A stretch of DNA of 52,286 nucleotides from positions 1-52,286 of IMG/VR virus record IMGVR_UViG_3300046000_009647; one strand, given 5' to 3'. Each line of letters opens with the position of its first letter. Within the stretch, counting starts at the first letter, position 1. The notes beneath the pieces are model-generated. The model was not told where the DNA came from. It did no database searches and saw nothing but the letters and a program-made list of their open reading frames with translations. Shown piece by piece: positions 432 through 806 of this stretch. The translations under genes and the position numbers were made by a program. The DNA is from a virus (Duplodnaviria; Caudoviricetes).

Positions 432-806
432 GTTGATAAGAGCCCGTTAACTTATCGTTGTACTTTAGATTTTTTGATCAAGTGTCCTACCACTAAGGCC
501 CCGAACGTACTATTCTACTCCTGCATTCCTTAGATGCGTTGTGAGGACGGGGAACAGGCTTTTATTAGAACCCTCTTTCTTACTTAGCTTCTTAAATTAT
601 TCTATCCACCTTCGCTTTTCGCTAAGCTTCCTATCCATTTAAGACCTTATAAGAGTAGGGTCACGCAGTTAAATCAATTAATATGGACTCCTATTAATAT
701 CGCCCTTTGTAAATAACTACTTGTTGAGAAGCCTCTATGTTGTGTAGACTGTATTTGGTGTATCTACATTTTATGGAACAATTTCCTTTCTCAAGGGAAC
801 AACACA
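432..806 (-). ncRNA. Candidate large structured ncRNA inside the tRNA array (GOLLD/ROOL-like context)
   Basis: No long ORF. Nested helices CCCCG/CGGGG, TCCT/AGGA, GCAT/ATGC, TGTAGA/TCTACA, ATTAATA/TATTAAT, GACC/GGTC, GATAAG/CTTATC; hairpin loop TTGAGAA complementary to downstream TTCTCAA. Confidence 0.6.

Follow-up and report, generated by a model that had tools for sequence, protein, structure and literature searches.

The 375-base gap between two tRNA-like genes, at positions 432 to 806 of the window (i.e. the whole 52,286-base stretch of phage DNA that was analysed), comprises two separate folded non-coding RNA genes and not one large RNA. These genes, termed RNA-A and RNA-B, are as follows:

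564..808, minus strand: RNA-B, long form, 245 nt; four conserved blocks aligned with 31 other long-form members
432..563, minus strand: RNA-A, a double-pseudoknot RNA of 132 nt; 43 distinct sequences with covariation

A preliminary description, made from the sequence alone, had read the gap as a single ornate RNA of ~375 nt. This reading did not hold, as the nearest relatives (i.e. L006 and L007) conserve 563..432 alone and 808..564 belongs to a separate family that is found in many contexts. In the closest relative, L066, RNA-A directly follows the 3' end of tRNA-Ser and 808..564 of the window is therefore extra sequence. The sequence features named in that description (i.e. hairpins, a TTCTCAA segment and a multistem) were each located on the minus strand, with their helices split over the two modules. 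Its statement that the gap lacks a long ORF was confirmed, with minus-strand ORFs of at least 30 aa being absent except for a 37-aa frame at 694..807. Single-sequence folding gave no signal against shuffled sequences (z = +0.31 for the minus strand and -0.55 for the plus strand). As the folding energy was no better than that of shuffles, the case for these RNAs rests on comparison with relatives, in which covariation was looked for and was strong in both RNA-A and RNA-B.

Genomic setting of the two RNA genes

The source record (IMG/VR; 52,286 bases) has an estimated completeness of 32%. The window has a GC content of ~31%, carries its long ORFs exclusively on the minus strand and codes for a myovirus-type tail sheath, a gp23-like major head protein, a DnaB-like helicase, UvsX and other phage proteins. 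Among cultured phages, the closest capsid belongs to Flavobacterium phage immuto (160 kb; 55% identity). ARAGORN called 11 tRNAs between 135 and 2291, every one on the minus strand, and extra matches to the Rfam tRNA model were present at 1544-1614 and 3396-3491. As the tRNAs and genes are all on the minus strand, the 432..806 element was assigned to this strand. The tRNA row is closely preceded by a promoter-like site (2370..2343), and the minus strand showed no terminator-like site from 47 to 2098. The string TTCGTATAT precedes the tRNA row and two other units.

The neighbours of the gap were identified by eye:

810..895, minus strand: degenerate tRNA-Ser(GCT)-like gene with acceptor GGAGAGT/GCTTTCC and loop CTGCTAA; upstream neighbour
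361..431 (about), minus strand: CAU-anticodon tRNA-like gene with a 7-bp acceptor stem and anticodon loop; downstream neighbour

The placement of the gap between two tRNAs was thus correct in so far as both flanks are tRNA-like, but these flanks are degenerate and neither 810-895 nor 361-431 was called in the window by ARAGORN or the Rfam tRNA model, even at E ≤ 10. Among 19 contexts from relatives, ARAGORN called the equivalent genes as tRNA-Ser(gct) in three (L061, L062 and L076) and as tRNA-Met(cat) in four. Gene order is kept among relatives as tRNA-Phe-Asn-Ile-Ser(GCT)-RNA-A-tRNA(CAU)-His. Acinetobacter T4-like phages carry, next to their tRNA cluster, a stretch without annotation that shares ~80% identity with the tRNA-Ser-like gene. 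When cultured phages were searched by blastn, the tRNA-Ser-like part alone matched 41 Acinetobacter phage records, with no match for 432-806 and none for RNA-B.

Fold, covariation and distribution of RNA-A

Relatives were first fetched via the nearby QueC gene. A first pattern detected RNA-A in one of 40 stretches, namely the contig of L006 itself. Two degenerate patterns combined with nhmmer found RNA-A in 32 of 35 loci (18 distinct sequences). A looser pattern recovered 34 IMG/VR stretches, all of which matched the profile, and a metagenome scan recovered 29 stretches, with 27 matching. The resulting alignment (A2) contains 43 distinct RNA-A sequences including the window. Collection of both RNA-A and RNA-B was by exact-pattern scans, which miss distant members.

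In an independent prediction by RNAalifold, the 5' end of RNA-A formed a long-range helix with the loop of its 3' hairpin. This helix was combined with helices identified by eye into a model of seven helices and two H-type pseudoknots, which was counted on A2. The topology is P1a-P2a-[P3-P4 hairpin]-P5a-P2b-[P6 hairpin]-P5b-P7a-P1b-P7b, in which P1 crosses P7 and P2 crosses P5:

560..555 (AGCCUG) with 446..441 (CGGGCU), minus strand: P1, pseudoknot 1; the 3' strand lies inside the 3' hairpin loop
552..548 (CCCCG) with 503..499 (CGGGG), minus strand: P2, which crosses P5 as pseudoknot 2; 92.6% paired
545..541 with 521..518, minus strand: P3; both-sides change in one of four pairs; register ambiguous
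537..534 with 526..523, minus strand: P4 hairpin; both-sides change in three of four pairs (UA 22 / CG 21; AU 29 / GC 14)
510..507 (GUAC) with 463..460 (GUAC), minus strand: P5; 100% paired; A-U to G-C in 10 sequences; encloses P6
493..491 with 484..482, minus strand: P6 hairpin; 100% paired; U-A to C-G in four sequences
456..451 (GAUAAG) with 440..435 (CUUAUC), minus strand: P7; 99.5% paired; A-U to G-C in 11 sequences

Standard pairs occupied 98.3% of 1333 cells of this model, as compared to 34-50% when the partners were slid by 1-3 columns. Changes on both sides were observed in 11 of 31 pairs (85 cells), with at least one such pair in each helix. Five measures were compared with 500 shuffles: for four of them no shuffle reached the observed values, whereas for the other (further pair types) 461 of 500 did so and the observed value was not above shuffles. 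As the sequences derive from one phage clade, these counts do not represent independent events. Variation in P1 is exemplified by columns 9/122 (GC 18, CG 11, AU 8 and GU 3) and, at a lower level, by columns 5/126 (AU 41, GC 1 and GU 1). Columns 15/62 of P2 exhibited CG in 32 sequences, UG in 10 and UA in one, and columns 13/64 of this helix were weak (non-standard in 16 of 43). Several pairs never vary, and pairing at these positions is putative. Overall, there is strong comparative evidence that RNA-A is a real conserved RNA structure.

The multistem of the preliminary description corresponds to CCCCG at 552..548, CGGGG at 503..499 and GCAT-CTAAGGA-ATGC at 537..523, and its GATAAG/CTTATC hairpin, at 456..451 and 440..435, is the covarying P7. 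The TCCT/AGGA pairing named there was found to be in a register that is 95.9% paired versus 99.4% for CUC.C/GGAG, and is not clearly worse. The heptaloop of P4 (YUAAGGA; 533..527) is invariant or nearly so, and the P6 loop (GURRGA) is nearly invariant. Judged from its sequence, the P4 hairpin appears to be anticodon-arm-like and to present the invariant heptaloop. A 3' tail of 3-4 nt, AAC(U), follows P7.

Exactly one copy of RNA-A was present in each of five near-complete relatives (97-100% complete; 162-173 kb). In species-representative genomes, a single one of 12 RNA-A pattern matches was genuine and came from an unclassified MAG (105-kb contig). No RNA-A was found in cultured phages by blastn or by use of model R1 on Flavobacterium phage immuto. 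This phage matched neither R1 nor R2 in a search that was positive for RNA-A in five of five genomes. A paper describing the fold of either RNA-A or RNA-B was not found in the literature searched. Thousands of unnamed IMG/VR motifs are listed by Fremin et al. 2023 (PMC10690425), and six RNA-A/RNA-B motif strings had no match in the searched part of the supplementary text of that article, such that either RNA may still be among those motifs.

Fold and spread of RNA-B and its relative in phage phi14:2

A 22-mer from the RNA-B hairpin was present in at least 122 IMG/VR stretches, on contigs of 4 to 362 kb, and the exact 22-mer is shared by the window. The fetched 22-mer loci contained 133 RNA-B instances. 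Approximately 100 of these are of a short form, in which a GAGG/CCUC hairpin carries UUCUCA in its loop, in many cases immediately before a tRNA. A further 32 are of a long form with two additional conserved blocks; the window is of the long form from end to end. The window was aligned with the 31 other long-form members (alignment A3). A second collection, based on a block-3 17-mer and independent of the hairpin, comprised 91 stretches, of which 65 had the hairpin within 350 nt upstream. Forty RNA-B sequences form alignment A4. The elements of the fold are:

723..807, minus strand: 5' domain; P1, P2 hairpin, variable hairpin and pseudoknot 3' strand all present in the window
805..800 with 742..737, minus strand: P1; both-sides change in six of six pairs (A4)
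799..796 with 786..783, loop CUUGAGAAA at 795..787, minus strand: P2 hairpin; both-sides change in two of four pairs (A4)
about 782..743, minus strand: variable hairpin, differing in length and sequence between members
730..724 (TTCTCAA), minus strand: pseudoknot 3' strand; 98.9% paired; both-sides change in none of seven pairs (A4)
720..714 (GUAGUUA) with 671..665 (UAACUGC), minus strand: P4; both-sides change in seven of seven pairs; 91.5% paired; encloses a variable insert
661..657 (ACCCU) with 574..570 (AGGGU), minus strand: P5; 97.5% paired; one both-sides change, C-G to U-A; encloses a variable domain

On A3, 97.2% of cells were paired, with 38-50% for the slid partners, and changes on both sides were observed in 9 of 29 pairs. 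RNA-B is a real structured RNA and a member of a large, widespread phage family that is absent from Rfam. The P2 hairpin reads TTCC-CTTGAGAAA-GGAA on the window (799..783); its stem occurs as UUCC/GGAA, UUGC/GCAA or UCAC/GUGA whilst the loop, CUUGAGAAA, is unchanged. The preliminary description had proposed that the loop of this 5' hairpin forms a pseudoknot with TTCTCAA. The pairing is indeed kept (98.6-98.9%), but pairs changed on both sides were not observed (0/7). As it is kept and never changed on both sides, this pseudoknot is conserved and plausible though unproven. The P4 helix has the family form GUAGUUA/UAACUAC and reads GUAGUUA/UAACUGC on the window. Blocks GACCCUACUCUUAU and AAGAAAGAGGGUGCUAA of the P5 region are conserved in A3, with the window reading GACCCUACUCUUAU ... 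AAGAAAGAGGGUUCUAA, and the 3' end of RNA-B is conserved and terminates in GAGGGUUCUAA. The R2 score of the window was 57.7 bits, a value obtained by construction as the window is in the training set.

RNA-B is found in diverse settings. It occurs elsewhere after tRNA-His or tRNA-Leu, or before tRNA or tmRNA genes, and is patchy among carriers of RNA-A, with 0, 0, 1, 1 and 2 copies in the five complete genomes. Relatives also contain the first 27 nt of RNA-B within other tRNA spacers (100% identity over 26-27 nt; 92.6% for L006), and this 5' segment is accompanied by its P1 partner and the UUCUCA segment. In species-representative genomes, all eight RNA-B pattern matches were real and lay on MAG contigs labelled with eight taxa of diverse phyla.

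One member was detected in a cultured phage by use of the block-3 17-mer, namely Cellulophaga phage phi14:2 (NC_021806, 3130-3359, plus strand). The RNA-B 5' domain (3130-3205, plus strand) scored 71.3 bits with model R2, whose training set includes this sequence, and the P4 and P5 blocks are also present. The phi14:2 member lies in an ORF-free stretch from g004 (end 2904) to g006 (start 4602); as g005 is no longer annotated, the placement refers to this stretch rather than to a single junction. It differs from the window in its position, which is not in a tRNA row but among ORFs where the early region begins, and in having no counterpart of RNA-A. This intergenic region is reported to produce an abundant long non-coding RNA (Drobysheva et al., bioRxiv 10.1101/2020.03.07.982082). 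As reported there, rightward intergenic transcripts outnumber most mRNAs and the intergenic RNAs are present from the earliest time point with no later drop. The preprint covers transcript abundance over the intergenic regions and describes neither ends, structure nor family of the RNA. RNA-B is thus not wholly new, as the region of one member had been published before as an abundant transcript without an explanation. Its presence in cultured phi14:2 means that the family gains a laboratory system.

Possible roles and comparison with known RNA classes

The conservation, covariation, synteny, copy number and Rfam absence described above, together with transcription of the phi14:2 RNA-B region, are consistent with a reading in which RNA-A and RNA-B are independent structured non-coding genes of a tRNA unit. 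We consider it probable that both are cut out by tRNA-maturation enzymes and are stable and trans-acting. The phage promoter ahead of the array would drive transcription of RNA-B and RNA-A together with the tRNAs, and both RNAs would then be excised from the precursor by the tRNA-maturation enzymes. The 3' end of RNA-A would arise from an RNase P cut at the 5' end of the CAU element, and the 5' ends from 3' processing of the upstream tRNA-Ser or from an endonuclease acting in the A-rich UAAUAAAA junction. As there is no tRNA between them in the window, RNA-B and RNA-A may stay joined as one transcript. Pseudoknots locking both ends may permit persistence as stable small RNAs, whose target in trans would be a factor of the host or of the phage. 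Loops are recognised in several known ways, including those of anticodon loops, TrmD (G36G37), CsrA (GGA loops) and anti-Shine-Dalgarno pairing. The heptaloop of RNA-A is similar to an anticodon loop with G36G37 and also to a GGA/Shine-Dalgarno-type loop. By analogy, these resemblances are offered as leads, and the likeliest target of RNA-A would be a factor that reads a loop of either type. The preliminary description had offered, as one of two alternatives, a new class released by tRNA processing. This is supported in outline: two covarying RNAs absent from Rfam do reside in the tRNA row, but they are not a single RNA and their release is a predicted step. RNA-A is a new RNA, and its liberation by tRNA processing appears to be the best reading.

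A second reading, which is possible but clearly less probable, concerns the association of RNA-A with the CAU element. A 7/7-paired acceptor stem begins 0-2 nt past RNA-A in all 41 homologues with enough downstream DNA, and the anticodon loop contains CAU in the same 41 of 41 (CTCATA in 39 and TTCATA in two). The element is deviant. In most relatives, the D arm has a 4-bp stem and a short loop of 3-4 nt without GG, and the T loop is AGCGUAA, AUCGAUA or similar, not UUCGAAU, and is without UUC. It received no ARAGORN or Rfam call in the complete relatives G004 and G001, as in the window; other positions of these arrays do carry canonical tRNA-Met genes, of which G004 has two and G001 has one. 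The upstream neighbour of RNA-A is variable, being tRNA-Ser directly, a short RNA-B, a long RNA-B, an ORF of ~68 codons or other inserts. This strict coupling of RNA-A to a deviant tRNA-like element combined with a variable upstream side is explained no less well by a cis-acting or composite role than by a free trans-acting RNA. RNA-A might be a cis-acting 5' module of the CAU element, such as a structured leader that prevents mispairing of a weakly folding tRNA or controls RNase P cleavage. It might instead form a joint two-domain RNA of ~200 nt with the CAU element, which would resemble tmRNA, the Y-RNA-like YrlA or T4 rnaC in having tRNA-like parts. However, comparison of RNA-A with the tRNA-like columns detected no helix-like covariation (15 scattered single pairs versus 48 within the tRNA) and hence no run of covarying pairs connecting the two. 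The whole local synteny is kept in this clade, such that the adjacency may simply be inherited. RNA-A also closes on itself, from the 5' end to the 3' hairpin loop, in the manner of an autonomous domain.

A more speculative extension, to which we attach a rather low probability, is that RNA-A and the CAU look-alike constitute one functional unit of a new kind. The RNA-A domain would deliver, mask or regulate a mimic of a Met/Ile-type tRNA in which the normal elbow of D loop and T loop is missing. The phage might use this unit for tampering with host translation initiation or AUA/AUG decoding, or as a decoy for a host tRNA-targeting defence nuclease. If true, this unit would be the phage counterpart of tmRNA-like hybrid RNAs, and one without a known relative.

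Self-cleavage is unlikely as an explanation for either module. Several classes of self-cleaving ribozyme are double-pseudoknotted and phage-associated, and one or both modules could on this basis cut the tRNA precursor, with RNA-A acting at the tRNA boundary and RNA-B just upstream of a tRNA. The compact pseudoknotted folds, the invariant loop and junction nucleotides and the location of the modules exactly at tRNA boundaries would suit such an activity. However, no ribozyme class in Rfam matches at E ≤ 10: hammerhead, HDV-like, twister, twister-sister, pistol, hatchet and glmS models gave no match in window 1-4000 or in 15 RNA-B loci. P2 of RNA-A is nested inside P1, which is not the HDV order, and RNA-B is also found away from tRNAs (e.g. 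between the phi14:2 ORFs).

The single RNA of ~375 nt, envisaged as a short GOLLD- or ROOL-type variant, is very unlikely. In the window the two modules are directly adjacent, without an intervening tRNA, and a joint transcript is possible. However, RNA-A occurs without RNA-B in two of five complete relatives, RNA-B occurs without RNA-A in hundreds of contigs and each half closes on itself. A cmscan of window 1-4000 at E ≤ 10 gave 31 matches, of which none was inside 432-806 and none was to GOLLD or ROOL. Least probable of all is that the conservation reflects a DNA-level or protein-coding function rather than RNA structure, since the 37-aa ORF (694..807, minus strand), whilst overlapping the RNA-B 5' domain, crosses the variable hairpin that differs in length and sequence between members, RNA-A has no frame open in more than 6 of 43 homologues, such that at least 37 of them carry stop codons whichever frame is read, and the changes preserve base pairs, not codons.

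On the favoured reading of two independent RNA genes, the window adds two well-supported RNAs to the small stable RNAs associated with phage tRNAs, a group recognised since T4. RNA-B links a tRNA-row element of a ~160-kb Flavobacterium-type myophage with an abundant transcript of a cultured crAss-like phage. RNA-A is compact, has strong covariation and is small enough for structure determination; its invariable fusion to an elbow-deviant tRNA look-alike poses a testable question on how phages may manipulate tRNA biology. The two families are Rfam candidates and account for spacers in large phage genomes that appear 'empty' to tRNA finders.

Known classes of RNA were searched for in the window. 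The families proposed for checking (i.e. GOLLD, ROOL, RNase P and tmRNA) gave no match in the element, and neither these nor ribozymes were detected at the Rfam 15 gathering score in the whole window or at E ≤ 10 in 1-4000. Fifteen RNA-B loci gave 10 Rfam matches, none of which was to GOLLD, ROOL, RNase P, tmRNA or a ribozyme. RNase P RNA was considered due to a vague likeness of the pseudoknots to the P4 helix and its flanks and was rejected, as there was no Rfam match and the pairing segments differ from those of the consensus. An HDV-like fold for RNA-A was likewise rejected, for the wrong order of helices and the absence of an Rfam match.

GOLLD and ROOL are large structured RNAs of 500-800 nt that are often found beside phage tRNAs. 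The gap modules share with them the property of being structured RNAs beside phage tRNAs but differ in size (245 and 132 nt), in having separate distributions and in having no Rfam match. If joined to the CAU element, RNA-A would combine pseudoknots with a tRNA-like domain and in this respect resemble tmRNA and YrlA. Both ends of a tmRNA molecule contribute to its tRNA-like domain, whereas the CAU element is not formed from both RNA ends. ARAGORN found no tmRNA in the window, and the only YrlA match in the region (17.8 bits; 1143-1236) was in another spacer.

The genome of T4 provides a further comparison. Its annotation includes rnaC (species 1, 139 nt) and rnaD (species 2, 119 nt) as small stable RNAs beside tRNA-Arg, which to our knowledge are still unexplained. 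Model R1 matched nothing in rnaC/rnaD at E ≤ 10, and the best match of model R2 in the T4 locus, inside rnaD, was not significant (9.9 bits; E = 3.4 over 65 kb). The likeness to T4 is therefore one of kind and not a demonstrated homology. T4 rnaD contains GGUUCCCUGAGUAAGGAAUU, which is close to GUUCCCUUGAGAAAGGAAAU of RNA-B, and has a hairpin very like RNA-B P2, although the order of the elements around this hairpin differs from that in RNA-B. As with RNA-A and RNA-B, the T4 species are non-coding RNAs situated directly beside a phage tRNA gene, and by analogy rnaC and rnaD may serve as a precedent for stable RNAs in this position.

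tRNA look-alikes beside RNA-A and RNA-B

In the window, the 132-nt double-pseudoknot RNA (RNA-A) and the member of the phage family absent from Rfam (RNA-B) lie within a row of tRNA and tRNA-like genes.

L007 15033-15103; L389 about 8270-8340: tRNA look-alike with a CAU anticodon, directly downstream of RNA-A in relatives of the window
809-900: tRNA-Ser(GCT)-like sequence, with a counterpart at L015 2501-2589 (Acinetobacter phage ZZ1 72074-72162)
40-125 and 3290-3360, minus strand: tRNA-like genes with long internal insertions, starting (A)GTCAGGTGGCG or GTGGCGGAATTGGTAGACGC

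In these relatives, the CAU look-alike would lack a normal D-loop/T-loop elbow because its D loop is of only 3-4 nt, the anticodon stem is extended and T loops such as AGCGUAA are present. Canonical tRNA-Met genes were found elsewhere in the arrays bearing this look-alike. Comparison of the tRNA-Ser(GCT)-like sequence with an unannotated stretch in 41 records of Acinetobacter T4-like phages gave identities of 75-81%. In ZZ1, this stretch is located ~900 bp away from the annotated tRNA cluster and probably represents a tRNA-Ser, or a look-alike of one, that the annotation lacks. One relative (L151, about 205-410) carried a ~68-codon ORF (MEDDYEWYFDES...) between tRNA-Ser and RNA-A, indicating that this junction is tolerant of different insertion types.

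Insertion-bearing tRNA-like genes with the same starts were also observed at many RNA-B loci (e.g. L176, L187 and L215), where one very often sits immediately 3' of the short form of RNA-B; the Rfam tRNA matches of these genes were 96-126 nt long. Downstream of RNA-B in two IMG/VR loci (L219 and L235), sequences beginning GGGGGCGACTGGTTTTGACAGG resemble the 5' terminus of phage tmRNA.

Candidate promoters, gene leaders and homing-endonuclease-type genes

About 3797-3788, 3553-3545 and 2352-2343, minus strand: recurring string TTCGTATAT(T), or CTCGTATTT
4536-5246, 11783-12505, 19473-20375, 31331-31954 and 33073-33717, minus strand: homing-endonuclease-type genes (GIY-YIG/HNH/endonuclease VII-like)

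The recurring string, a candidate phage promoter motif, is found a short distance 5' of transcription units, the tRNA row among them. The leaders preceding ORF starts in the window are A-rich and devoid of Shine-Dalgarno sequences, as in Bacteroidota phages. The homing-endonuclease-type genes are interspersed with genes for replication and nucleotide metabolism, one being sited between both ribonucleotide reductase genes.

Further elements in the tRNA row

1257-1404, 1691-1790, 1986-2048 and 289-361, minus strand: ORF-free inter-tRNA spacers of 60-150 nt
1030-1177, minus strand: tRNA-like element with an acceptor-type stem and a T arm

The content of the four spacers was explained by no tool, and further small RNAs akin to RNA-A and RNA-B may be present there. 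In the tRNA-like element, TGCTCGTA.../...TATGAGCA make up a paired stem of the acceptor type and AGCTGGTTCGATTCCAGCT a canonical T arm, with ~75 additional bases in the interior. No call was made for this element by ARAGORN; a weak match (17.8 bits) to Rfam YrlA, a Y-RNA-like family, was obtained at 1143-1236. In layout, the element is reminiscent of T4 rnaC, a small stable RNA (species 1) encoded beside tRNA-Arg that is tRNA-like in its 3' portion.
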